A DNA stretch of 64,000 nucleotides from Pseudomonadota bacterium (lineage in GTDB: Bacteria; Desulfobacterota; Desulfobacteria; Desulfobacterales; RPRI01): NCBI GenBank assembly GCA_043825875.1, contig JBDRRF010000076.1:170120-234119 (forward strand). Direction: 5' to 3'. Below are positions 1 to 10,616 of the stretch, in pieces (position 1 is the first letter of the stretch; each line of letters starts with the position of its first letter). The position numbers were made by a program, and so were the translations under genes. The notes under the pieces were generated by a model. It was not told the DNA's origin. It saw only the letters and a program-made list of their open reading frames with translations, and did not search any database.

Positions 1-1380
1 AGCATAAATGATCCTTATCTTAAGGAACGGTCTAATGATATTTCTTATGTTTCAGATCGTATTGTGAAAAAACTGATGGGATCTGAAGAAGTAAATATCG
101 GCAAAATAGACAAGCGCGTCATTCTGGTTGCAAAAGATCTTTCACCTGCCGATACAAGCCAGATCCAGTTGGATAAAATTATGGGTTTTATTACCGACCG
201 TGGCGGTAAGACTTCTCACACAGGAATCATAGCCCGTACACTTGAAATACCTGCTGTTCTCGGCTTGGGTAGTGCTACAAAAATAATACATAATGATGAT
301 ACGTTAATAATAGACGGATCAACAGGGGTTGTAATTGTAAATCCCTCGGAACAAACACTTAAGAAATATAAAGAGATTGAAACCAGAGAAGAAGAGCATA
401 AAGTACATTTATCGTTTGAAAGCCATTTTAAGGCAGAGACTATCGATGGGTTTTCTCTGCCGGTTATGGGGAACATAGAGCTTCCTGAAGAAGTTCCTTC
501 AGTGCTGAACCATGGTGGTGATGGCATAGGGCTTTACAGAACCGAATTTCAATATCTTACACGAAGCGATTTTCCAAGCGAGGAAGAGCTTTTTGATAAG
601 TACAAAAATGTTGTTGAGTCGATAGCTCCGAAACCGGTGACAATCCGTACGCTTGACATAAACGGGGATAAAGCGCTTGTATCTTCCAATGGTTTTGACG
701 AACCAAACCCTGCTCTTGGACTTCGTGCTATAAGATACTGTCTGGAACGGCCTGAAATTTTTATAACACAATTAAAAGCAATATTAAGAGCCGCTGCTTT
801 TGGAAATGTGAGAATCCTGTTTCCAATGATATCAGGCATTGATGAAATACGCGAAACAAAAAAATACCTTAATGAAGCTGCTGATCTGCTTGAAAAAGAA
901 GGAAAGGCTTATAATAAAAACATCCCGTTCGGAATAATGATTGAAGTACCATCCACAGTTATAATGGCCGATGCTATGGCCGATGAAGCTGATTTTTTCA
1001 GTATTGGTACAAATGACCTTATCCAATATACTCTTGCGATAGACAGGGTTAATATGGGAGTCGCCCACCTTTATCAACCCTTTCACCCTGCTATTTTACG
1101 CATGATCAAGCACGTAACTGATGTTTGCAAAGCAAAAGGCATAAAGGTTTTTGTATGCGGGGAAATGGCAGGTGATCCTTTGAATGTGCCGGTTCTGCTC
1201 GGGTTGGGAATAGACGGACTGAGTATGAATCCCCAGTCAATTCCGGCAGTAAAAAATATGATACGATCACTAAAGATCGAGGATACAAAAATATTTATGA
1301 AAGAAATTCTTAATAAGACCACCACAAATGACGTAGCAAAACTTGTTGAAGCCTCTTTCGGAAACATTATTTCAAAATAG
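1..1380 (+). CDS. ptsI: PEP-protein phosphotransferase (PTS enzyme I), 5'-truncated by window
   Basis: GGKTSHTGI phospho-His motif, GIGLYRTEF, EPNPALGLRAIR, DFFSIGTNDLIQY, CGEMAG; frame open from base 1 (SINDPYLKER...). Confidence 0.95.
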   Translation, partial: SINDPYLKERSNDISYVSDRIVKKLMGSEEVNIGKIDKRVILVAKDLSPADTSQIQLDKIMGFITDRGGKTSHTGIIARTLEIPAVLGLGSATKIIHNDDTLIIDGSTGVVIVNPSEQTLKKYKEIETREEEHKVHLSFESHFKAETIDGFSLPVMGNIELPEEVPSVLNHGGDGIGLYRTEFQYLTRSDFPSEEELFDKYKNVVESIAPKPVTIRTLDINGDKALVSSNGFDEPNPALGLRAIRYCLERPEIFITQLKAILRAAAFGNVRILFPMISGIDEIRETKKYLNEAADLLEKEGKAYNKNIPFGIMIEVPSTVIMADAMADEADFFSIGTNDLIQYTLAIDRVNMGVAHLYQPFHPAILRMIKHVTDVCKAKGIKVFVCGEMAGDPLNVPVLLGLGIDGLSMNPQSIPAVKNMIRSLKIEDTKIFMKEILNKTTTNDVAKLVEASFGNIISK

Positions 1381-1481
1381 GATAAAATCGGCACAATTTA
1401 AATTATTTGGAAATATACGGATTGTGACAAATCATAAAGCAGGAGCTGTAAAACCGGAATTTAAGCATTTGGAAGAAATCA

Positions 1482-1940
1482 TTGGAAAATACCCGCAATA
1501 AAAATATCTCAGAAAACAGAAAAGCACGGCATGACTATTTCATTGAAGATGAATATGAAGCAGGCATGGTTCTTCTTGGAACCGAAGTTAAATCTCTAAG
1601 GCTTGGCCGGGCAAACCTCAAGGATTCATACGCAAAAATTAAAAACGGAGAGATTTTTGTTCATCAAATGCATATAGGCCCCTGCCCATTCGCTTATTAT
1701 GCAAATCATGATCCGTTGAGAATAAGAAAACTTCTATTAAACAGGCAGGAGATAAACAAGCTTACAAACAAGGTAAACGAAAAAGGACACTCCCTGATTC
1801 CTTTAAGGTTATATTTCAAAAACGGAAAAGTAAAAATTTCAATCGCACTCGCCAAAGGCAAAAGACAATACGATAAGCGGGAAGCTATCAAAAAACGCGA
1901 TGAAAAAAGGGAAATGGATAGAGATAGAAGCGAAAGATAG
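1482..1940 (+). CDS. smpB: SsrA-binding protein SmpB
   Basis: NRKARHDYFIEDEYEAG, GTEVKSLR, RKLLL, KGKRQYDKRE. Confidence 0.97.
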   Translation: MENTRNKNISENRKARHDYFIEDEYEAGMVLLGTEVKSLRLGRANLKDSYAKIKNGEIFVHQMHIGPCPFAYYANHDPLRIRKLLLNRQEINKLTNKVNEKGHSLIPLRLYFKNGKVKISIALAKGKRQYDKREAIKKRDEKREMDRDRSER

Positions 1941-2102
1941 CCTCTATTTGTGCACAGCAATTCCCGGTGGAATAATAAACTGTCTAATATAACCATCCAA
2001 AACAAAACTGAAATTAAAGACTATAAAGATTGCTGATTTCGGGAAATTTTGCTTGACTTTATAGCCATTCTTTATTAGATAAACAATTCTTTAAAAGACT
2101 GA

Positions 2103-2178
2103 TCCCCAGTAGCTCAGCAGGTAGAGCAAGTGGCTGTTAACCACTTTGTCCGCGGTTCGAGTCCGTGCTGGGGAGCCA
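2103..2178 (+). tRNA. tRNA-Asn (GTT)
   Basis: 76 nt; acceptor stem TCCCCAG/CTGGGGA, D arm AGCTCAG..GGTAGAGC, anticodon GTT at 2136-2138, GGTTCGAGTCC T arm, encoded CCA. Confidence 0.97.
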
Positions 2179-2180
2179 AA
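2128..2180 (+). repeat. att core, left copy (within intact tRNA)
   Basis: Identical to 10414-10466 over 53 bp. Confidence 0.95.
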
Positions 2181-2189
2181 CAAATCAAG

Positions 2190-2223
2190 GGCTTAGATAA
2201 GTTTTAAATCTAAGCCTTTTTTT
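2190..2223 (+). terminator. Element-supplied intrinsic terminator for tRNA-Asn
   Basis: GGCTTAGAT...ATCTAAGCC followed by T run. Confidence 0.7.
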
Positions 2224-2244
2224 ATTCCCCACGTTATTCCCCAC
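2222..2244 (+). repeat. Putative integrase arm-type sites (2x TTATTCCCCAC)
   Basis: Same motif occurs 3x at the other end (10228-10290). Confidence 0.7.
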
Positions 2245-2260
2245 ATTTTAACTTGAAAAT

Positions 2261-2287
2261 AAAAAAAGGCGGATGAAATCACCCGCC
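2261..2287 (-). terminator. Intrinsic terminator after 164-aa ORF
   Basis: Minus strand GGCGGGTGA-TT-TCATCCGCC-TTTTTTT. Confidence 0.7.
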
Positions 2288-2331
2288 CCCTTAAATTCTT
2301 TCAAAAGCCTTTCCGGATCTTTACGCTTATT

Positions 2332-2826
2332 TTATAATGCTTTTGGTGTATTCTTCCGCCGCATTCGAAAATCATCTAAATTTAATACCGGTTCTTTTAT
2401 TTTCAAATCCTCAATTTCAATCAACAAACTATCAAAGTCTTTTAGTAAAATTTGGCAAGCTGCAACGGGTGAAATGTCTTTTTCTGCTAAATCGTTCATT
2501 CTATTTATAATGCCATTAAGAAATTTATATTTATTTAAAACTTCCGCTGAAAAAAGCGGGCCATTTCGACGCATCTTTATGGCTGCAATTATATCTTTAA
2601 AAAACATGTTTGAGTATCTATCCCGCTCGGTTCGGATATTTTTTACATAATTACGATAGGTTTTTAACGTCGATTCTTTTAATGGTTTCCCGTACTTGCT
2701 AACATGGTTTTTAAGCTTCTTTTTTATATTGATATATTTATTGATAACGTTCGTTCGGTAGTAATGTAATTTATGTTTAAGCTCAGCTTCAAGCTCATTT
2801 AAATCCATACTTTGATATTGTTTCAT
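2332..2826 (-). CDS. Hypothetical protein (164 aa, basic)
   Basis: ORF with G-rich RBS and downstream terminator; no recognised motif. Confidence 0.6.
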   Translation of the reverse strand: MKQYQSMDLNELEAELKHKLHYYRTNVINKYINIKKKLKNHVSKYGKPLKESTLKTYRNYVKNIRTERDRYSNMFFKDIIAAIKMRRNGPLFSAEVLNKYKFLNGIINRMNDLAEKDISPVAACQILLKDFDSLLIEIEDLKIKEPVLNLDDFRMRRKNTPKAL

Positions 2827-2851
2827 ATCTTACCCCCCCCTTAAAATAAAA

Positions 2852-2918
2852 AAGCCTGAAGGCGTCCCCGGTCCAGAGAACCGCTCACAATATCACTATT
2901 GCAAGTACCTTCAGGCTT
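2852..2918 (-). ncRNA. C4-like three-way-junction RNA / attenuator
   Basis: Outer stem AAGCCTGAAGG/CCTTCAGGCTT plus U run; inner CAATA-GTGA-TATTG (GNRA) and CGGT-TCTCTGG-ACCG; loop complementary to CCAGAGA at 2941-2947. Confidence 0.6.
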
Positions 2919-3002
2919 ATTTTTAATATTTGTTTTCATGTCTCTGGCTTTGGGGTTTTTATATACTTATATACGTGTATAAGCATTGTCAAGCATTATT
3001 TA

Positions 3003-3031
3003 TTGACTTTTAAGTTTTAAATCCATATAAA
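3003..3031 (+). promoter_or_regulatory. sigma70 promoter for RHH gene
   Basis: TTGACT-N17-TATAAA. Confidence 0.65.
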
Positions 3032-3038
3032 AAAAGTT

Positions 3039-3203
3039 ATGAAAGAACGAAAACCCTTCACAACAAGTTTAAACATATTGCTACTTAAAGATATTAAGAA
3101 GCTTGCAATTGACCATGACAAAGGTGTTAATGATCTTCTCGAAGAAGCTATCCGGGATATTCTAAAAAAGTATGAATTACAGTCTCAAAAACCCACCAAA
3201 TAG
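3039..3203 (+). CDS. Ribbon-helix-helix (CopG-like) DNA-binding protein, 54 aa (not in ORF track)
   Basis: MKERKPFTTSLNILLLKDIKKLAIDHDKGVNDLLEEAIRDILKKYE: beta strand followed by two helices. Confidence 0.8.
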   Translation: MKERKPFTTSLNILLLKDIKKLAIDHDKGVNDLLEEAIRDILKKYELQSQKPTK

Positions 3204-3359
3204 CATAACCTATTAACTAATTGAAATTGCTTATAATATCGGCTTAATTAGAGTCGTTTACAGCGTACTTTATGAAAAAGACATGGTTTAGCATGCCTCG
3301 TTTACGGCCGTTTTTCAGTTTTGAACCCGGATTGCTACGCTTTACCCCAAAAACAGCTT

Positions 3360-3403
3360 GGGTCCTTCCAGAGGTCTTTCGATATTAGGGGTAATTCGCA
3401 CCC
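3360..3403 (+). other. cos-like site A (cosQ-like GGGTCCT + 17 nt + 20-bp core)
   Basis: GGGTCCT 3360-3366; ATTAGGGGTAATTCGCACCC 3384-3403; perfect inverted copy of the core at 3896-3915. Confidence 0.6.
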
Positions 3404-3460
3404 GTCTATTTTTCTACATGTGATGATTTTTCATAAGTACCTAATACCATGACATAATCA

Positions 3461-3814
3461 TTAATCCCCAAATTTAAAAAAACCCAGATCATCATCTGGA
3501 TCATCATCAACGTCATCATCCGGATCATCATCAAAGCCAAATTTGTTTATATTTACAGATAGTTCAGGATAATCATAAACAAAATCTATACACGAATTAT
3601 TTTGTTTTGGCTGTTTCCGGTTTAACAGAAAGCTTTTGCGGCCCCACTCCTGCAAAGCAACTTCAAGATCAATTTTCTTTACATTTTTTATATTAACAAT
3701 AGAGTGGCTTAACTTGCCGGATTTAATCGCGGCGGAGATCCTTTGCCGTGATACTCCTATCAGCCTGGCAAATTGGCTGTTGGTTATAAAGATTCTATCT
3801 TTTTTTCGTGGCAT
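3461..3814 (-). CDS. Nu1/small-terminase-like HTH protein with acidic tail
   Basis: TNSQFARLIGVSRQRISAAIKSGKL...IDLEVALQEW resembles the TerS N-terminal HTH; lies directly downstream of cos-like site B. Confidence 0.6.
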   Translation of the reverse strand: MPRKKDRIFITNSQFARLIGVSRQRISAAIKSGKLSHSIVNIKNVKKIDLEVALQEWGRKSFLLNRKQPKQNNSCIDFVYDYPELSVNINKFGFDDDPDDDVDDDPDDDLGFFKFGD

Positions 3815-3895
3815 GGCATAACTTTTAAAAACTGCTGTTGTTTTTTCTTTAAAATTACAACCCGATTTTGTAACTTTGTGTCTAAAAAAAGGGCA

Positions 3896-3939
3896 GGGTG
3901 CGAATTACCCCTAATGGAAAAAAACTTTTAGGAGGACCC
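3896..3939 (-). other. cos-like site B
   Basis: Minus strand GGGTCCT (3939-3933), 17 nt, then ATTAGGGGTAATTCGCACCC (3915-3896). Confidence 0.6.
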
Positions 3940-3952
3940 GCACCTTTTCCGG

Positions 3953-4699
3953 TTAACTTGCGCTTAAAGTTTCAAGGTATTGGTCATGCAATTCCGGTTG
4001 ATCATGTATAACGGCACGAACAGCCTGTGCCATTGACATGTTATGTTCCGAAGAATACTGATTAACCGCTTCCATAAATGGCTCTGTCGTATGTTCTACC
4101 TTTGCCATAGGTTCACTCTTTGGCGCCTTGGCTTCATCTATCAGGTTGTTAACGTATGATTCATGCAGATCCGGGTTTTCTTCTGACACGGCACGAACAG
4201 CCTGTGCCATTGACAAGTTATGTTCTGAAGCATACTGATTAACAACGTCCATAAAAGATAGTTTGGTTTCTGTCTGGACTGAAGCTTTGCCTTCCTCTTT
4301 TTGTTTGAGACAGATATGATCCGTCCAAAGTTTCGGATATAGCTCTTGACATCTAAGCGTTGCTACGCCCTTTGATTGTTCTTGGTGTTCCCACTGATAC
4401 CTTGAAACAGCCGCCTCAAAAGTCAAAGGGATTCCACCCGGGACACCTTGCTTGCCTGTATCCTTTACTTCTTCAGGCTCAACGGCTGCATCTGTGCTTA
4501 TTAAATGGTTAAAATAACTCTCACCGTTTGGGAATTGTTTCTGAAGCTCTTTATCGCGGAAAAACTCACGATCTGCACTTATTTTTAGCAGTAATTCTGA
4601 CCCTTTAATCTCGCTCGGTTCCCCATTTTCCAGAATATGCCGATAAAAGCTTAATGCTTCCATTGTGTTTTCTGCAGGACTCAAATTATTATCCATCAT
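3953..4699 (-). CDS. Hypothetical protein with repeated ~36-aa helical module (possible scaffold-like protein)
   Basis: FMDVVNQYASEHNLSMAQAVRAVSEENPDLHESY / FMEAVNQYSSEHNMSMAQAVRAVIHDQPELHDQY; DNA repeat at 4011 and 4188. Confidence 0.7.
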   Translation of the reverse strand: MMDNNLSPAENTMEALSFYRHILENGEPSEIKGSELLLKISADREFFRDKELQKQFPNGESYFNHLISTDAAVEPEEVKDTGKQGVPGGIPLTFEAAVSRYQWEHQEQSKGVATLRCQELYPKLWTDHICLKQKEEGKASVQTETKLSFMDVVNQYASEHNLSMAQAVRAVSEENPDLHESYVNNLIDEAKAPKSEPMAKVEHTTEPFMEAVNQYSSEHNMSMAQAVRAVIHDQPELHDQYLETLSAS

Positions 4700-4710
4700 A
4701 ACCCCCTTTA

Positions 4711-5265
4711 TTAAATAAAATGTGAATGTTCGAATTTTCTAAAGACGTCATTCATTTTAAATCGCATGTTTGCATCAAGCCCGGAAAGTGCGTTGGTACT
4801 ATCGGGCAAGCATTCATCCTGAATAATTTTTGCCATGGTTTTAAAAGCTGTTTGACGCTCTTTAATGAACTCGTTTATTTCATCCACGAGCAAATCGCCA
4901 TGAGGAAGAAGCCGGTCAGTCAACTTTTTTAAGATTTGCTGATTGATTTCAAAAATCTGCTGTTCGATTGGTTTTATCTGTGAGTCAATTTCTTCGGGAA
5001 TGTCTTCATACTGCGGAAGTAATTCAAGGATACCGGTCAGCTTTTTCTGGATTTCGGGAACCTTGGCATCATTGCCATCGACAAGAAGATCTTTTATTTG
5101 TTTTTTCAAGTCTTCTGCCTGCTTCTCATATCCAAGAATAGTGTCCTCAACTTTCTTCTTCCGCTCCATAATCTGCTCTTTGTTTTTGATAAGCACCTGT
5201 TTTTGTTCAAGTTCAGTTTTTACTGCTTCAATACATTGGTCCAGACAGCTGTTCTCTTTCTCCAT
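4711..5265 (-). CDS. Hypothetical coiled-coil protein (184 aa)
   Basis: E/K/Q-rich heptads; AGGAG RBS. Confidence 0.7.
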   Translation of the reverse strand: MEKENSCLDQCIEAVKTELEQKQVLIKNKEQIMERKKKVEDTILGYEKQAEDLKKQIKDLLVDGNDAKVPEIQKKLTGILELLPQYEDIPEEIDSQIKPIEQQIFEINQQILKKLTDRLLPHGDLLVDEINEFIKERQTAFKTMAKIIQDECLPDSTNALSGLDANMRFKMNDVFRKFEHSHFI

Positions 5266-5307
5266 GGTCCAATTCTCCTATTTTGTGTAATGGTTATTAA
5301 AATTTTG

Positions 5308-5373
5308 CCGTGTGAATGTGCCGACCGGAAAGGGTTTCGGTTGCCGGGCCTCACGGTTGCCGGATTCACACGG
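5308..5373 (-). ncRNA. C4-like three-way-junction RNA
   Basis: Outer stem CCGTGTGAAT/ATTCACACGG; inner CCGG-CAA-CC-GTGA-GG-C-CCGG and ACCG..CGGT hairpins; GC-rich island in AT-rich DNA. Confidence 0.55.
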
Positions 5374-5608
5374 GCAAACTGTTTAAAGCTGTATTTGCTA
5401 AACTTATTAAAAAATTAACGTGATTTATTTCTTCTTGGTAATCATGCTTTAGCTTTTCTCTTTTCTTAAATTCTTTATAATCAAGATATCCGCTCGGCAA
5501 TTCAGAAAGCTTTGCTCTGGCATCTGCAATCCGCTTGTTATAATTTTCAAGATCAAGAACTGCTTCTTGTGTTAATTGTTCAGAAGTATAAAAAATAGTA
5601 TTCGACAT
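5366..5608 (-). CDS. Hypothetical protein (~80 aa)
   Basis: ORF MSNTIFY...; helical composition; start uncertain. Confidence 0.5.
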   Translation of the reverse strand: MSNTIFYTSEQLTQEAVLDLENYNKRIADARAKLSELPSGYLDYKEFKKREKLKHDYQEEINHVNFLISLANTALNSLPV

Positions 5609-5717
5609 TTTTACTTTTATCTTTTTTGTTTTTAAAAAAACACACAAGTGTGAATCTGGAAGATTCGCACCCTTCTTAAGACCTTCTTAAAAACATACTT
5701 ATAATACCTTCTTAGGG

Positions 5718-5840
5718 GGGAATTTTTTCCCATGTTTTGGAAAAAATCTCCCATGTTCAGGGAAAATTTTCCCGTCATTACGGGGAATTTTTTCCCATGC
5801 TCTTTTTTGATCTTATTTATTACAGGGAATTTTTTCCCAT
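5718..5840. repeat. Iteron-like array (putative origin of replication)
   Basis: Five 16-bp units of consensus GGGAATTTTTTCCCAT at 5718, 5739, 5760, 5783, 5825 (spacings 21, 21, 23, 42). Confidence 0.8.
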
Positions 5841-5849
5841 AAAAAAGCA

Positions 5850-6566
5850 TCATACCGCCACCCGATCTCTTAACTTTTGGTTTAAATAACCCGGCTTCCA
5901 ATGCTTTTTTGGAATAAGAAAAACCCGCCAAACTCTTTCGCCTTCATAGGTATCATATGGTTCAATTAAAAAGTTCTTTTGAAGGCTTTTTATAGCATCC
6001 CCCACACTTCGCCTGTTGATTCCGGCAAATTCAGCTAACCGCCCAATTTCAGCACTACACAACTCCCAGCGTCGTTTTGCAAAACGCTCTTTGAACTCAA
6101 GGTTATCATATTCAACGTTCTCATCTTCTTCGGCATCATAATATGAGAAATATCTCATTACTGGATAAAGTGCTTTTGCTGTTGGTTTGAGTTCTGACCA
6201 TGTGCCGCTTCTAATAATCCCATTATAAAAGAAGAACGACCGGCCATTTTCACCCTTTTGAGGAAATTTCAATTTATAGTACTTACCCCGTTTTCCGTGC
6301 CGGGTCAGAAAATACTCCCATGTAAACCCAGGAAAACCGTCAAGGTCTTTAATACCTTGCCGTACGGTTTTAATATCTAAGCGCGATAGTGCAGCAATTG
6401 TTTCTTGACCCGGAAATGCTTTACCGTGTTCATCACAATGACAAGCAATTACAGGAAGAACCGCCTTTGCTGCTGTTGATATATTTGACCAGTTCATATT
6501 CTCGTTCCATCTTTTATCGAAACGAAAAAACAGCGTCCAATCAATATCAGCCGAAAAATGATACAT
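5850..6566 (-). CDS. Putative replication initiator with two winged-helix-like repeats
   Basis: AFPGQETIAALSRLDIKTVRQGIKDL and IGRLAEFAGINRRSVGDAIKSL; iterons just downstream; GAGG RBS before ATG 6566. Confidence 0.65.
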   Translation of the reverse strand: MYHFSADIDWTLFFRFDKRWNENMNWSNISTAAKAVLPVIACHCDEHGKAFPGQETIAALSRLDIKTVRQGIKDLDGFPGFTWEYFLTRHGKRGKYYKLKFPQKGENGRSFFFYNGIIRSGTWSELKPTAKALYPVMRYFSYYDAEEDENVEYDNLEFKERFAKRRWELCSAEIGRLAEFAGINRRSVGDAIKSLQKNFLIEPYDTYEGERVWRVFLIPKKHWKPGYLNQKLRDRVAV

Positions 6567-6606
6567 TATTATCGCCCTCACAGCGCAACCGCCCCACAAG
6601 AAGTAA

Positions 6607-6668
6607 TCGGAAGAGAAACGAGGTGTGAGGTTCCTTGCCTATCGGCGCGCGCCGCCTATCTCTTCCGA
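6607..6668 (-). ncRNA. Structured cis-regulatory RNA (TAGGC..GCCGATA family) upstream of rep-like gene
   Basis: Outer stem TCGGAAGAGA/TCTCTTCCGA; core shared with 8285-8340; loop CCTCACA complementary to TGTGAGG RBS at 6576-6582. Confidence 0.65.
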
Positions 6669-6809
6669 AATTCAAAATCTGCAACTGGTTTTTGTTTTGG
6701 TTATTAAATGCGTCAAGTGAACGGTTTGAGCAACCCTGGGACATAGTATCAGGCTGACACATGCCGGAAGCTGAAAACCCGCTTCTTAGAACCTCTGGTG
6801 GCTTCATGC

Positions 6810-7007
6810 TTATGCACTCAACGACTTTTCAGGATCAATCCGGTGTGAGTCTATAAAAGACTCAATATCTTTAAGCCGGTATCTGACAGAACGCCCGATT
6901 TTAATAAATGGAAGTCCACGGCTCATAAAACGATCATTTCGTAAAGTGAATACGCTTTTACCGATAATTTTTGCTGCTTCTTTTTCGTTGATAATTCCTA
7001 AGCTCAT
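6810..7007 (-). CDS. AlpA/excisionase-like HTH protein
   Basis: INEKEAAKIIGKSVFTLRNDRFMSRGLPFIKIGRSVRYRLKDIESFI; AGGAG RBS. Confidence 0.85.
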   Translation of the reverse strand: MSLGIINEKEAAKIIGKSVFTLRNDRFMSRGLPFIKIGRSVRYRLKDIESFIDSHRIDPEKSLSA

Positions 7008-7051
7008 ATTTACTCTCCTTTTTTCAATGTACTTCTTTTAAAAAACAAAAA

Positions 7052-7078
7052 AGCCACAAGATTATTTATCCTGTAGCT
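7052..7078 (-). terminator. Intrinsic terminator upstream of alpA-like gene
   Basis: Minus strand AGCTACAGGAT-AAATA-ATCTTGTGGCT followed by TTTTGTTTTTT. Confidence 0.6.
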
Positions 7079-7204
7079 ATAGAGTACTACTATTTTTTTC
7101 TAAGTCAATTATTTAAAATGATTATAGGAAGTTAGCTGATATTTTAAACTTTAGAATATCAGCTTTTCTTTTGATAAATAAGAGGGTTTTACAGTTATTA
7201 AAGT

Positions 7205-8251
7205 TTAAACCCTTTTCAGGTATAATGGTATATATATTAACCGGAGAGTGTTTTCGCTGAGGTATAAGTTGAACTTTTCAATATGAACGGTATCTCTTGT
7301 TATGCTTTTAAGCAAAAAGGGGTTTCTTTTGATCTTTTGTAAAAAAGCATAAAGATCTATTGCAAAACCGCTATTGCTTTTAATCTTATAAGGTTTACTT
7401 CTCTCTTTTAATTTTATTTCACCTTTATTATTTGTAATTGCTTCATTTGCAAGAAAGTATTCTATAATTTTAAAAAGAATTTGATCTCTGGGATTAATTC
7501 TTATTTCTCGTTCTTTTTCTTTTTGCTTTATTTTTGCAATGCTTTTCTTTTTGCTTTCCAGGTATTTCTTTTCGGCTGCTGGCCGTAATTCATCACTTTC
7601 ACTCATAAACCGATGTATTAAAAATGCGTCCATTTTTGCTCTATTAATTGTTGCTGCTCGTTTTGAGTACGTTCGGGCATCTTCAAGATACTTCATAGAA
7701 GAACTATCTTCTTCAAATCTCATACCTTCCACTAAAAAACTTTTTACAGAGAATATTGCCATTTCAATAGCAAACAGATTAAACAGTGCCTCCGAATCGA
7801 TTTTTTCCCTCGCGCCTGGACTTACTCCATTAGTGCAAAGTGCCTCTCGCCATATTACCTCTTCTGGAATGCCACATTCGCCTTTCATCCCTGAATAGTT
7901 GTTACGATATCTTTTAAAAAGTGCTGCTGAAGCATTTAAACTATCCGTGTAAATAGAATCTGCTCCCCGTTTGTAAATAGCGCGTAAATCTTCAAGAAAT
8001 TTTGCAGGAAAACCGATAAGGCTTTCAATAACCTTTGAGGAAGGCCAAAGAGAATTCCCTAAGCATGGCACGTTATCTTCAAGGTGAAAACAAACAATAA
8101 AATTTGTGCGGCATTCTCTTATAATTAAAAGGCATTCTTGGAAGTATTTACTTTCAATTTCCAAAGATTCCAACCGCTGAATATCTCCAAATATCGGGCA
8201 TCGTTCATTATAAAATTCTGTTTTATAAGGATTGTTTTCAAGTTTATTCAT
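7205..8251 (-). CDS. Hypothetical accessory protein (348 aa)
   Basis: Long ORF; no recognised motif. Confidence 0.7.
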   Translation of the reverse strand: MNKLENNPYKTEFYNERCPIFGDIQRLESLEIESKYFQECLLIIRECRTNFIVCFHLEDNVPCLGNSLWPSSKVIESLIGFPAKFLEDLRAIYKRGADSIYTDSLNASAALFKRYRNNYSGMKGECGIPEEVIWREALCTNGVSPGAREKIDSEALFNLFAIEMAIFSVKSFLVEGMRFEEDSSSMKYLEDARTYSKRAATINRAKMDAFLIHRFMSESDELRPAAEKKYLESKKKSIAKIKQKEKEREIRINPRDQILFKIIEYFLANEAITNNKGEIKLKERSKPYKIKSNSGFAIDLYAFLQKIKRNPFLLKSITRDTVHIEKFNLYLSENTLRLIYIPLYLKRV

Positions 8252-8284
8252 TGCTTGTCCATTTGCAATGCGTCCTGAAATTTA

Positions 8285-8340
8285 TTGAGGGAAGCTGGCA
8301 GGACATTTCCAGCTTATCGGCCCGTCGGCCTATCCCTCAA
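8285..8340 (-). ncRNA. Structured cis-regulatory RNA (TAGGC..GCCGATA family)
   Basis: Minus strand TTGAGGGA-TAGGCCGACGGGCCGATA-AGCTGG-AAATGTCCTG-CCAGCT-TCCCTCAA. Confidence 0.65.
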
Positions 8341-8341
8341 A
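8313..8341 (+). repeat. 29-bp direct repeat, left of TA module
   Basis: CTTATCGGCCCGTCGGCCTATCCCTCAAA, identical at 9020-9048. Confidence 0.9.
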
Positions 8342-8352
8342 AGTATTTGTAA

Positions 8353-8703
8353 TCACATAAGCACCCGGTAATCAATCTTGAGTGCATCGCCAAATAACCG
8401 GGCATTTTTCCGGCCTATAACCCTTTTCCCGTTTTCCATTTCAGAAATGTGACGCTGAGGGATTCCGGTCAATTCGGAAAGTTGCCCTTGCGTCAAACCC
8501 TCTTTATGCCTTGCGCCTGATAGGGCGACACCGGGAGAATTGTCTTTAAATTCAGGAAAGGCATCTCTCCAGGGAATAGTATCCGATGCATCCTTATAGC
8601 CGATAGACTTCATCAACTTGACGGCCTTATCTTTCTCCGACACCGGCCCGGAGAACGTTAATACAATGCTTTTAGTACGGCGCTTTTTCGTGTGTTCCAG
8701 CAT
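8353..8703 (-). CDS. XRE-family HTH antitoxin (HigA-like)
   Basis: GLTQGQLSELTGIPQRHISEMENGKR; overlaps upstream toxin. Confidence 0.85.
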   Translation of the reverse strand: MLEHTKKRRTKSIVLTFSGPVSEKDKAVKLMKSIGYKDASDTIPWRDAFPEFKDNSPGVALSGARHKEGLTQGQLSELTGIPQRHISEMENGKRVIGRKNARLFGDALKIDYRVLM

Positions 8704-8953
8704 AAACAACCTCGATCAATTGTATTTCATTATCAATAATCTGCCAAACCGCAACATAGGTCGGCTGACCCTTTTTTAAATGGCAATGGTGCCTCTGATC
8801 TTTCAGTTTGCCATAATTTGGCCAGTTGCCCCTTATCGGCCCTTTGAGTTCAATCTCTCTCAACAGGGCAAAAAGAGATTTCTTCGCCCTGACAGGCAAC
8901 CGGTCAATCATCTTGTTTATCCGCCTGGGAATTACCACCTGCCATTTAATCAT
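8672..8953 (-). CDS. RelE/HigB-superfamily toxin
   Basis: GPIRGNWPNYGKL, HHCHLKKGQPTYVAVW, EVVYAGTHEKAPY; toxin precedes HTH. Confidence 0.8.
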   Translation of the reverse strand: MIKWQVVIPRRINKMIDRLPVRAKKSLFALLREIELKGPIRGNWPNYGKLKDQRHHCHLKKGQPTYVAVWQIIDNEIQLIEVVYAGTHEKAPY

Positions 8954-9019
8954 GATAATAATATACCTTTTTTTAGTATCAAATCAAGATTTATTTTTTA
9001 TCGTTTACATTTGCCGCTT

Positions 9020-9048
9020 CTTATCGGCCCGTCGGCCTATCCCTCAAA
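9020..9048 (+). repeat. 29-bp direct repeat, right of TA module (overlaps integrase stop)
   Basis: Identical to 8313-8341. Confidence 0.9.
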
Positions 9049-10213
9049 CTTCGTTTGCTGCTTTAACCTTTGATGTTTTGTTCGCTGGCTTGTTTATTAT
9101 ATCCCCTGCAAGCGCTGAGGCTCTTTTCAATGCGTCATCTCGCAAGTGTGCATACCTTTGAGTCATTAGCGGGCTCTTATGAGTCAGAAGCCTTTGCAAG
9201 GTGTATAAGTCAACTTGCCCAGAGCTTGCCAACACAGACGCATAAACATGACGGAGCCCATGCATCGGCCTAAATCCAACAGGAAGTCCAGCCTTGTTTC
9301 GGATACGGTCAACGCTTTTTCTATTCAAAGTAGTTAAATGAGATCCTTCCCTTTGCCCTGGGAAAATCCATCCATTACTTCCTGCTTTTTCTATTTTTTC
9401 TAATACAGCTAACGCAGAGCCGTTTAAAGGGATACTCTGATCTTGCCCGCCCTTTGGGTTACGGATTGTAATAAAACCCCGCTCAAAGTCAATGTCCTGC
9501 CATTTTAACCGGAATATTTCGCCCCGTCTCATGCCTGTATAAAGTGCAAGTTTCATAATACTTGCCGTTGTCTGATCTTCATCTCTCTCTAAAACAGCCA
9601 GTAAAGATTTAATCTGATATTCTGTTAGATCTTCTGTTGTTTGGTTGTTCAATCTTGGGATTTCAATTTTAAAAGTAATAGGAGAAGTCTTGCCCTTTTT
9701 CACGCCATAATTGAGAGTCCGGCGAAGGATTTCAAGCACCCTTGCTGCTGTTGTCTTATGTCCCTTTTTTAATAACCCCAAACGGAGCCGATCAACATCA
9801 AGCGGAAGAAGTTGACCCGGTTCTTTATCGCCAAGCACCTGCCTTATGTGAACATCGAATTTTCTTTTCTCCGCATTTATAATTTTATTGTATGGATTAT
9901 TTTCACAGTATGAATCCCAAAGTTTCGCAATAGTCCATCGGGTATTTACAGCTTCCTTCCTTGCCTTTTCAACTTCTCTTTTTTCTGTATTTGAAGTTTG
10001 ATTCCCTTCAATTTTTTGTGCCCGGATACGCGCTGCCTTTGCAGGAGTCATATCATCTTGGAATTGACGCCCCACTTTTTCATCAATTGCTTTCCCTGCT
10101 TTCCGATAACGGATATAATAAATCCTTTCCGGCCGGCCTGTAACTATTCCCTTGCTTTCAATATAATATACTCCAGGATATTTTGTCTTGATTCGTAAAA
10201 ATGATTTTGGCAT
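9044..10213 (-). CDS. int: Tyrosine recombinase/integrase
   Basis: LALYTGMRRGEI, HGLRH, LLTHKSPLMTQRYAH; AGAGG RBS before ATG 10213. Confidence 0.95.
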   Translation of the reverse strand: MPKSFLRIKTKYPGVYYIESKGIVTGRPERIYYIRYRKAGKAIDEKVGRQFQDDMTPAKAARIRAQKIEGNQTSNTEKREVEKARKEAVNTRWTIAKLWDSYCENNPYNKIINAEKRKFDVHIRQVLGDKEPGQLLPLDVDRLRLGLLKKGHKTTAARVLEILRRTLNYGVKKGKTSPITFKIEIPRLNNQTTEDLTEYQIKSLLAVLERDEDQTTASIMKLALYTGMRRGEIFRLKWQDIDFERGFITIRNPKGGQDQSIPLNGSALAVLEKIEKAGSNGWIFPGQREGSHLTTLNRKSVDRIRNKAGLPVGFRPMHGLRHVYASVLASSGQVDLYTLQRLLTHKSPLMTQRYAHLRDDALKRASALAGDIINKPANKTSKVKAANEV

Positions 10214-10227
10214 TTTAAACCTCTTTT

Positions 10228-10290
10228 TGTTCCCCACACTACACAATAATTATAACCACTGCTTTTTATTCCCCACACTATTCCCCACAC
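10228..10290 (+). repeat. Putative integrase arm-type sites (3x TTCCCCACAC)
   Basis: Copies at 10228-10239, 10266-10278, 10279-10290. Confidence 0.7.
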
Positions 10291-10413
10291 ATAAATTAAA
10301 TATACAGGTAATAAAAAGTAAGTCAATAAAAATAATACTCAATAATAATCTATTATTTCAAGGTATTTAATGACATAAATAAAAAGGAAGGTAAATTAAG
10401 GTAAATAGCTTAA

Positions 10414-10466
10414 AAGTGGCTGTTAACCACTTTGTCCGCGGTTCGAGTCCGTGCTGGGGAGCCAAA
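10414..10466 (+). repeat. att core, right copy (3' part of tRNA-Asn)
   Basis: Identical to 2128-2180. Confidence 0.95.
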
Positions 10467-10472
10467 AATTAT

Positions 10473-10502
10473 AGCCCGTTCATTAATTGAGCGGGCTTTT
10501 TT
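10473..10502 (+). terminator. Probable original tRNA-Asn terminator
   Basis: AGCCCGTTCA-TTAAT-TGAGCGGGCT-TTTTT. Confidence 0.75.
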
Positions 10503-10616
10503 ATTGGATTTTATCATGTGATACGTATATATTAGTAATAGTTACGGTTTATAAATAACTTATGTTTTCGGAAATGCGTTCAATCCCATAAGGATGTATT
10601 GAAAAACCAAAATGGG

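Follow-up and report, generated by a model that had tools for sequence, protein, structure and literature searches.

A 580-bp segment of the 64,000-nucleotide stretch of DNA analysed here (the window; positions 170,120 to 234,119 of contig JBDRRF010000076.1, assembly GCA_043825875.1, from a Pseudomonadota bacterium placed by GTDB in the Desulfobacterales, RPRI01) contains two inverted cohesive-end (cos) sites of the phage lambda type enclosing one small gene. We interpret this segment, with a probability of about 0.68, as the DNA-packaging module of an 8.3-kb helper-dependent satellite that resembles the phage-inducible chromosomal islands (PICIs), is inserted in a tRNA-Asn gene, and hijacks the terminase of its helper phage in the manner of the Rpp proteins of Escherichia coli islands. 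A packaging-hijack module had been proposed here from the letters of the DNA and its translations (the sequence-only reading), and the proposal is supported by the identity of both sites to a family of phage cos sites, by the domain of the encoded protein that resembles terminase small subunits (TerS), by the PICI-like anatomy of the island, and by a layout common with that of the E. coli island EcCICFT073.

The two sites can be read directly. Site A is on the + strand, with GGGTCCT at 3360-3366 followed after a 17-nt spacer by ATTAGGGGTAATTCGCACCC at 3384-3403, and site B is on the - strand, with GGGTCCT at 3939-3933, ATTAGGGGTAATTCGCACCC at 3915-3896 and a spacer unlike that of site A. The sequence-only reading had described precisely this pair, GGGTCCT-N17-core at 3360-3403 (+) and 3939-3896 (-) with the same core and different spacers, and both the direct read and a genome-wide scan confirm it. 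The 20-mer ATTAGGGGTAATTCGCACCC has exactly two matches in the window at up to three mismatches, with two or more matches in none of 100 shuffled sequences, and the two sites are its only occurrences in the whole 4.77-Mb genome (99.8% complete); the reversed control gave none. GGGTCCT occurs three times in the window on both strands, and two of these occurrences are sites A and B. A repeat search aligns the arms without gaps over 57 nt at 75% complementarity (3360-3416 with 3883-3939), passing beyond the core into a run of T residues (T-run). The cosQ block GGGTCCT and the ATTAGGGGTAATTCGCACCC block are identical in both arms and the spacers within the arms have diverged, a result that selection acting on the two blocks would be expected to produce.

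The arms enclose a single open reading frame (ORF; 3461-3814, - strand) of 117 codons, and the order of the module is site B, an 82-bp candidate cosB, the 117-aa gene, 58 bp and the inverted site A, spanning 580 bp in all. Site B and the gene are in the canonical order cosQ-cosN-cosB-gene, if the candidate cosB is accepted, and site A faces the 3' end of the gene and is inverted relative to it. The sequence-only reading also pointed to an inverted repeat between site B and the gene. The repeat, TTACAA-N7-TTGTAA, is present at 3855-3873 and is single in the window, but a match also arises in 8 of 100 shuffles and alone it is not significant. No R-site repeats or integration host factor site are recognisable in the candidate cosB (3815-3895), and there is nothing comparable to the TTACAA-N7-TTGTAA repeat beside site A.

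The relationship of these sites to phage cos sites comes from exact scans for the 16-mer core GGGGTAATTCGCACCC in viral contigs and in one genome per species (596 Gb). The 16-mer is present in 35 viral contigs, in 31 of which GGGTCC(T/C)TCC lies upstream at the same distance. It is present at 113 loci in the genome scan, 40 of which have the cosQ block and are nearly all in Rhodobacterales and Acetobacteraceae; the remaining 73 have unrelated flanks and approximate the number expected by chance for a 16-mer in 596 Gb. The combined cosQ and cosN pattern was also found at 21 metagenome loci. At all six loci that were profiled, the site is ~50 bp upstream of a Nu1-like terS gene (phrog_141/phrog_57; Phage_Nu1 or DUF1441), which is followed by a gpA-type gene for the large terminase subunit (terL; GpA_ATPase plus GpA_nuclease in all six), and at four of the six the site directly follows a phrog_1924 tail gene. 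In phages the motif is single-copy and at terminase loci. Of 72 unique phage sites, 41 have a spacer of 21 nt following GGGTCC and 21 have one of 22 nt (71 of the 72 have 19-23 nt); both island sites, with 22 nt, are inside the phage range. A T-run behind cosN occurs in the phages carrying the motif and in the island, as it does in lambda. The family can be written as GGGTCC(T/C)TCC, about 21 nt, GGGGTAATTCGC(A/G/T)CCC, and judged by its sequence the twin arms are genuine lambda-type cosQ-cosN sites. The lambda-type cos interpretation made earlier is therefore upheld by the position of the motif upstream of Nu1/gpA terminase genes in many phages, and the condition named in the sequence-only reading for its refutation, absence of the motif from the terminase loci of related phages, does not apply. 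When 50,697 phage records were searched with the cos region by BLASTN, the matches did not exceed chance level; a record opened at cos would have the site split.

A close variant of the motif precedes terS in the Paracoccus siphoviruses Psul1 and Pben1, the large terminases of which are 67-68% identical to that of one motif-bearing phage; both are induced siphoviruses verified by transmission electron microscopy (PMC6536676). The Pben1 record (MK291441; locus ~740-770) has a 12-nt tandem duplication exactly within the core that is absent from its relative Psul1. Such a duplication would arise from assembling filled-in 12-nt cohesive ends, and it is probably an assembly trace of this kind that reads out the overhang. 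By inference from Pben1, the cut sites in the island would be GG/GGTAATTCGCAC/CC (slashes mark the cuts).

Several contigs carry the motif in other settings. Two metagenome contigs of 10,981 bp each (L195 and L197), from two assemblies, contain the same cosQ-cosN site with offsets 263-6304 versus 4492-10533, which suggests a circular ~11-kb element carrying this cos allele; a third contig (L199) stops 5 nt past the core. One 22-kb Pseudooceanicola contig (L089, L105) has two cos motifs in the same orientation ~10.4 kb apart, and the same is true of L015/L021. Downstream of each of these copies are ORFs with the sizes of terS and terL, and the copies may belong to tandem small phage-like or capsid-forming-satellite-like elements.

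The convergent orientation of sites A and B had been called unusual in the sequence-only reading, but the same orientation is found in E. coli. EcCICFT073 has two functional cos sites, of which cos1 is required for transfer and deletion of cos2 raises transfer (PMC6092414). The sites copy the cosQ and cosN of the helper and not its cosB, and RppA (144 aa, with a TerS-like DNA-binding domain) pairs with the helper TerS in a complex that recognises the cosB of cos1 in place of that of the phage. The CFT073 chromosome has five matches to the lambda-type pattern, with the same GGGTCCT heptamer; three of them are solitary and two are on opposite strands 770 bp apart (1387528-1387569, +, and 1388338-1388297, -). 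Between this pair is a 144-aa gene (1387659-1388093, +), whose residues R21-T22 fit the published RppA. A published 'cosB-cos.1' chimera primer ends in the sequence following the + site, which identifies cos1 as the canonical site upstream of rppA and cos2 as the downstream, inverted one. Inverted cos-like arms also surround the gene in two other E. coli islands, which have a different core and rpp genes 86-87% identical in DNA (arms of 77 nt at 77%; of 40 nt at 95%, plus GGGTCCT arms), and the convergent layout is thus seen in all three E. coli rpp loci examined. The inverted orientation is unstated in the main texts of the two papers on EcCICFT073 and Rpp, the supplementary figures of which may draw it, and among the 15 of 38 papers listed by a literature search none linked PICIs, cos sites and opposite orientation. 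The placement of the gene between cos1 and an inverted cos2 as a feature of Rpp loci is derived in this analysis.

The N-terminal domain of the 117-aa protein is TerS-like in its profile match, its nearest relatives and its predicted fold. The match to phrog_57 (terminase small subunit in PHROG) covers residues 7-67 only, at the N-terminus (E 4.7e-6), and there are weaker matches to Phage_Cox (E 1.1e-3), to excisionase phrogs (E 0.01-0.08) and to MerR. RppA behaves similarly in a PHROG scan, matching phrog_57 by its N-terminal helix-turn-helix (HTH) only and over the same region of the profile. A HMMER search of 1.84 billion representatives gave seven weak matches, five of which are full-length phrog_57 TerS proteins of 162-199 aa that match the family at E 1e-22 to 5e-31; these five have 41-50% identity to the island protein over the first ~55 residues, followed by ~100 residues without an island counterpart. 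AlphaFold2, run with a small alignment, predicts a winged helix of strand-helix-helix-hairpin-helix form for residues 9-65 (block pLDDT, the per-residue confidence score, 83-91 over residues 11-60), and no secondary structure for residues 66-117 (pLDDT 39-50). The 52-residue tail is aspartate-rich with aromatic residues at its end, and is partly encoded by a 24-nt tandem repeat at 3489-3536. The best match of the model in VIA-align is 6hn7_B (Z 8.2, 1.7 A over 62 residues). The 6hn7 structure is a complex of RppC with lambda TerS(1-98), and chain B is the lambda TerS domain, since RppC is the 153-residue chain; the RppC chain is not among the 50 VIA-align matches listed. A search of the PDB by sequence gave nothing meaningful for the 117-aa protein and no match to RppC. 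Homologues of the protein were found in none of 60 related genomes.

The island as a whole looks PICI-like (Table 1). It has its own integrase and att repeats, an AlpA-like regulator near int, a Rep protein with iterons, and 8.3 kb of DNA without structural genes; AlpA is the PICI activator. The cos module is on the side of the island remote from int, and is followed by the ribbon-helix-helix ORF, which is the only + strand gene of the island, by the 164-aa ORF, and then by attL. Scans with Pfam, PHROG, NCBIfam and defence profiles gave no significant match to capsid, tail, terminase or lysis families among the 12 island ORFs, and the defence and NCBIfam scans of the ORFs of unknown function gave nothing above threshold. 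Profile scans also showed no transposase or invertase in the island other than the integrase, and all of the island ORFs are open. The GC content of the island is 0.379 and that of the rest of the window 0.368 (host, 37%), so the island did not come recently from a donor of high GC. As a lead to the host phylum, the Atlas cluster nearest to the neighbouring SmpB is commonest in Thermodesulfobacteriota, where the host probably belongs.

Table 1. Coordinates of the cos module and the other features of the tRNA-Asn island in the window.
Feature	Position	Strand	Basis or remarks
tRNA-Asn, with attL	2103-2178 (attL 2128-2180)	+	ARAGORN, Rfam tRNA; 53-nt direct repeat, 100% identical
164-aa ORF of unknown function, at the end opposite int	2332-2826	-	No significant family
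54-aa ribbon-helix-helix (Arc-like) ORF	3039-3203	+	phrog_3180 E 1.5e-6; Antitox_RHH E 2.4e-5, below Pfam cut-off
cos site A (cos2-like)	3360-3416	+	cosQ GGGTCCTTCC 3360-3369; cosN core 3388-3403; T-run 3409-3413
117-aa gene	3461-3814	-	Residues 1-65 TerS/Nu1-type winged HTH; residues 66-117 disordered acidic tail (both predicted)
Candidate cosB of site B	3815-3895	-	T-run, TTACAA-N7-TTGTAA, gene upstream region; position by analogy with lambda and EcCICFT073 cos1
cos site B (cos1-like)	3883-3939	-	cosQ GGGTCCTCCT 3939-3930; cosN core 3911-3896
Three ORFs of unknown function (248 aa; 184 aa, coiled-coil-like; 93 aa), between origin and cos module	3953-5647	-	No family above threshold
Candidate replication origin	5712-5840	.	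Three 22-nt iterons (82-100% identical) and adjacent 28-nt inverted repeat, just downstream of Rep-like gene
249-aa replication-initiator-like protein (HTH_36)	5850-6599	-	PF13730 E 1.4e-13; phrog_1032 E 5e-10
65-aa AlpA/excisionase-like HTH_17 protein	6810-7007	-	PF12728 E 2.4e-6, above cut-off; phrog_66 E 3.5e-5
348-aa ORF of unknown function	7205-8251	-	No family
int-alpA RNA motif RF02996	8273-8340	-	39.3 bits (gathering score 35.8), E 1.8e-5
HigB/RelE-like toxin (93 aa) and XRE-HTH antitoxin-like protein (118 aa)	8353-8953	-	phrog_32175 E 8e-18; HTH_3; TIGR03070 below cut-off
400-aa tyrosine integrase, next to attR	9044-10246	-	PF00589 E 4.7e-30; phrog_1 E 2.5e-55
attR copy of 53-nt repeat (3' part of tRNA-Asn)	10414-10466	+	Repeat search

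In the probable source run, the island is represented by one contig of 8,291 nt with a depth of 26.5, compared with 27-27.6 for the flanks, and the graph breaks at both att copies. Short contigs from two marine metagenome runs match segments of the island (window 2299-6738) at 85-100% similarity, which places related islands beyond the source habitat as well. There are no differences in the iteron region (5647-5863) and 13 differences in the segment that includes site A (3232-3448); the marine contigs barely cover the 117-aa gene and site B. Homologues of the Rep-like protein are present in seven of 400 other genomes of the same order, and the three of these loci with enough flank have no inverted cosQ-like pair. 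In one related Rep-bearing island (G323, L224 9190-9600), ~20 iterons of the GGTTAAAT type are inside a 236-aa ORF, and the origin layout differs.

Two further repeats were observed in the island. A 105-nt repeat within the 248-aa ORF that lies upstream of site B (3974-4078 and 4151-4255, 81% identical) results in two copies of one short, helical-looking segment. Perfect 29-nt direct repeats (8313-8341 and 9020-9048) bracket the toxin-antitoxin pair and overlap the int-alpA RNA and the integrase stop codon, and the toxin-antitoxin cassette looks as if it was inserted between int and the int-alpA motif.

From these features we infer a course for the cutting and packaging of the island, for the contacts of the protein with DNA and terminase, and for the role of site A. 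As the gene content suggests, a siphovirus that has a Nu1/gpA terminase and the same cos allele would act as helper on infection or induction, the leftward island operon would be turned on, Int would excise the island, and the island would replicate from the iterons via the Rep-like protein. The arms, each consisting of cosQ (GGGTCCT...), ~22 nt of free spacer, the cosN core GGGGTAATTCGCACCC and the T-run, are copies of the cos of a siphovirus family with Nu1/gpA terminases. The helper large terminase would recognise the island cosQ and cosN because these are copies of its own, cut the concatemers, and package them into helper capsids. By analogy, the most likely role of the 117-aa protein is to bind the island's own cosB (3815-3895) and to direct the helper terminase onto island DNA, to the advantage of the island over its helper, and it could do so either in a mixed dimer with the helper TerS, as E. 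coli Rpp does, or via its acidic tail. Packaging from site B (the equivalent of cos1) would proceed leftwards, first across the gene and then along the concatemer until the next site B was reached, and site A (the equivalent of cos2) would be a second entry point for packaging in the opposite direction. A translocating terminase that meets an inverted cos encounters cosN before cosQ, which should not terminate packaging.

Several results weigh against this hijack of a helper terminase, and they are of three types. The first concerns the protein. A near-length search of 5.8 billion proteins, limited to proteins of similar length, found only the 117-aa protein itself. BLASTP against RppA gives E 3.3 over 14 tail residues, which is no similarity, and AlphaFold2 predicts none of the Rpp-like C-terminal dimerisation helices (alpha4-alpha6, coiled coil), these helices being the dimerisation domain of Rpp. 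The description of the gene as TerS/Rpp-like in the sequence-only reading thus stands for the TerS-like N-terminal domain and fails for Rpp sequence homology and the C-terminal helices; the system would work like Rpp, and we do not file the protein in the Rpp family. The structural comparison suggested at the same time also gave a divided result. Its top VIA-align match is the lambda TerS domain of 6hn7, but a Foldseek search of the model against the PDB gave nothing at E <= 0.001 (best 0.06), and other Xis, MerR and TerS winged helices are within 1 Z unit of the top match (Xis structures, Z 7.3-7.6), so that the fold indicates a DNA-binding domain of the TerS/Xis/MerR type and no more.

The second type concerns the sites. 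A second inverted copy was found with this cos allele at none of the 35 viral, 113 genome and 21 metagenome loci. Beside the core, the island does not keep the bases conserved in the phages (-2 C, 0.94; +16 C, 0.86; +17 G, 0.97); at -2/+16/+17 it has T/G/T in site A and T/T/G in site B, and site B also departs at two cosQ-extension positions that are 0.99 conserved in phages. The site of the true helper may differ slightly from the phage consensus, or the island sites may be suboptimal. In addition, the source-run contigs have a single orientation, no excision joint and no excess of depth, although contigs drop rare forms.

The third type concerns the helper, and no helper phage was found in the host genome or in its relatives. 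The 99.8%-complete host genome has no gpA-type TerL and no third copy of the motif. In the same order there are 30 gpA loci in 26 of 251 genomes, and none of the 30 has this cosN within four substitutions in a cos-like place. The search for the motif upstream of terS-terL in phages and prophages, as advised in the sequence-only reading, was therefore positive for many phages and negative for the host genome and the same-order gpA loci. About ten of those 30 loci appear to have GGGTCC(T/C)T and then, ~20 nt later, a different G-rich core (e.g. CAGGGGTC...), and a few others have AGGTACT in place of GGGTCC(T/C)T; it appears from these loci that cosQ is conserved across gpA-type phages of very different hosts and that the core varies. 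The phage carriers of this allele all have a GC content of at least 0.52, except for variants without GGGTCC, and the island is 38% GC. A relaxed scan of viral contigs for cosQ plus a 12-mer gave 53 loci, all of at least 0.52 GC but one that is likely a chance match.

Three other explanations have to be considered. One is that the island is a cos satellite in which the 117-aa protein replaces the helper TerS, binding cosB and recruiting TerL via its acidic, aromatic-tipped tail. There is a precedent in the TerS encoded by Staphylococcus aureus pathogenicity islands (SaPIs), which redirects phage TerL. The nearest relatives of the protein are genuine TerS proteins, it has no sequence similarity to Rpp, and it has a 52-residue disordered acidic tail instead of the Rpp helical dimerisation domain, all of which fit such a miniature TerS. 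However, the full-length relatives need ~100 more residues, for oligomerisation and TerL binding, that are missing here, and the position of the gene between a cos1-like and a cos2-like site copies the Rpp system. We regard this explanation as unlikely.

A second explanation, which we consider improbable, is that the two cos copies package the island passively as in a cosmid, and that the 117-aa protein takes no part in packaging, acting only as an excision factor or a regulator of the Cox/Xis type. The weak matches to Phage_Cox, to excisionase phrogs and to Xis structures are consistent with this, as is the occurrence of the fold in Xis, Cox, AlpA and MerR. Yet the best profile match and five of the seven relatives are TerS, an AlpA/Xis-like gene is already present beside the int-alpA motif, and the same position between inverted cos sites is occupied by rppA in E. 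coli.

The third, that the segment is an inert, duplicated remnant of the packaging region of a decayed prophage, or consists of inversion sites or terminal repeats of a mobile cassette with no packaging today, would accommodate the lack of a known helper, the deviation of the core flanks from the phage consensus, the uniqueness of the twin arrangement within this cos allele, and the scoring of cosN plus T-run as a weak terminator-like hairpin, but is very improbable given that both arms keep the same functional blocks although their spacers have drifted, that the island ORFs are all open and the att repeats 100% identical, that there is no transposase or invertase besides the integrase, that the motif is single-copy at phage terminase loci and so is not a transposon end, that one orientation only was assembled (with the proviso that contigs drop rare variants), and that E. 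coli satellites of the same layout are functional (PMC6092414).

If the segment is a packaging-hijack module, as we favour, the arrangement of its sites may have a wider meaning. We raise tentatively the possibility that the convergent order of cos, TerS-mimic gene and inverted cos is a selected functional architecture of cos satellites, either evolved independently or kept across phyla, that covers the lambda cosN of E. coli, a second E. coli cosN allele, and the third allele and unrelated protein of the window. It would follow, with equal reserve, that the inverted second site has its own job and is not a spare copy. Possible jobs include a packaging start in the opposite direction, by which adjoining host DNA or the remaining half of a concatemer is mobilised, the trapping of helper terminase so as to interfere with the helper, and the bridging of this site to cos1 by a complex of mimic and TerS. 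Were this architecture indeed selected, the 117-aa protein with its acidic tail would represent another way of redirecting terminase, different in structure from the first. The purpose of cos2 is in any case reopened, as its deletion raised laboratory transfer in E. coli (PMC6092414), yet the layout is kept in very different elements.

There are also practical consequences. The widespread cos family defined here can be used to find cos ends and cos satellites in prophages of Rhodobacterales and Acetobacteraceae and beyond, and an inverted twin cos around a small winged-helix gene is a sequence-independent signature of satellites that can be applied where protein homology fails.

Among known cos systems, SaPIbov5 and SaPIbov4 are similar in that they are satellites bearing a copy of the helper cos instead of terS, and SaPIbov4 is reported to have two putative cos sites (PMC6092414). 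Their helpers differ, being HNH/TerS/TerL cos phages of Firmicutes with an unrelated cos, and no Rpp-like protein is described for them in the available text of the source. Lambda cos is closer, with a GGGTCCT cosQ ~20-25 nt before a 12-16-bp core framed by G...C, a T-run, and a Nu1-type winged-helix gene downstream, and the motif-carrying phages have a Nu1-like TerS and a gpA-type TerL. It differs in the sequence of the core, in that the island has no terminase, and in the presence of two opposed sites in the island versus one in lambda.

The closest likeness is to EcCICFT073. Both are small integrase-bearing islands with the module far from int and one or two small ORFs before att, and both have cosQ-cosN, followed by cosB (in the window a candidate only), ~80-90 bp upstream of a small TerS-type winged-helix gene with a second, inverted cosQ-cosN downstream, the span being 811 bp in EcCICFT073 and 580 bp in the window. 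In both, the similarity of the arms passes cosN into the T-run and then ends, and cosQ and cosN copy those of a phage whereas the cosB region does not. The cosN sequence differs (GGGCGGCGACCT in E. coli, GGGGTAATTCGCACCC in the window), as does the protein, which in the window is 117 aa with a predicted disordered acidic tail and no sequence similarity to RppA, whereas the Rpp proteins have 144-153 aa and helices alpha4-alpha6. EcCICFT073 has capsid or decoration genes that the 8.3-kb island lacks, and the island has a Rep-HTH_36 protein with iterons and not a primase, no known helper, and a distant host of 37% GC. Packaging piracy of the Rpp type at cos sites has so far been worked out in enterobacterial PICIs, and this locus suggests the same strategy, inverted second cos included, in a distant low-GC groundwater bacterium that is probably of the sulfate-reducer type. 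What differs is the cos allele, the host, and a mimic protein without a sequence link to Rpp; the architecture and the logic are as in E. coli.

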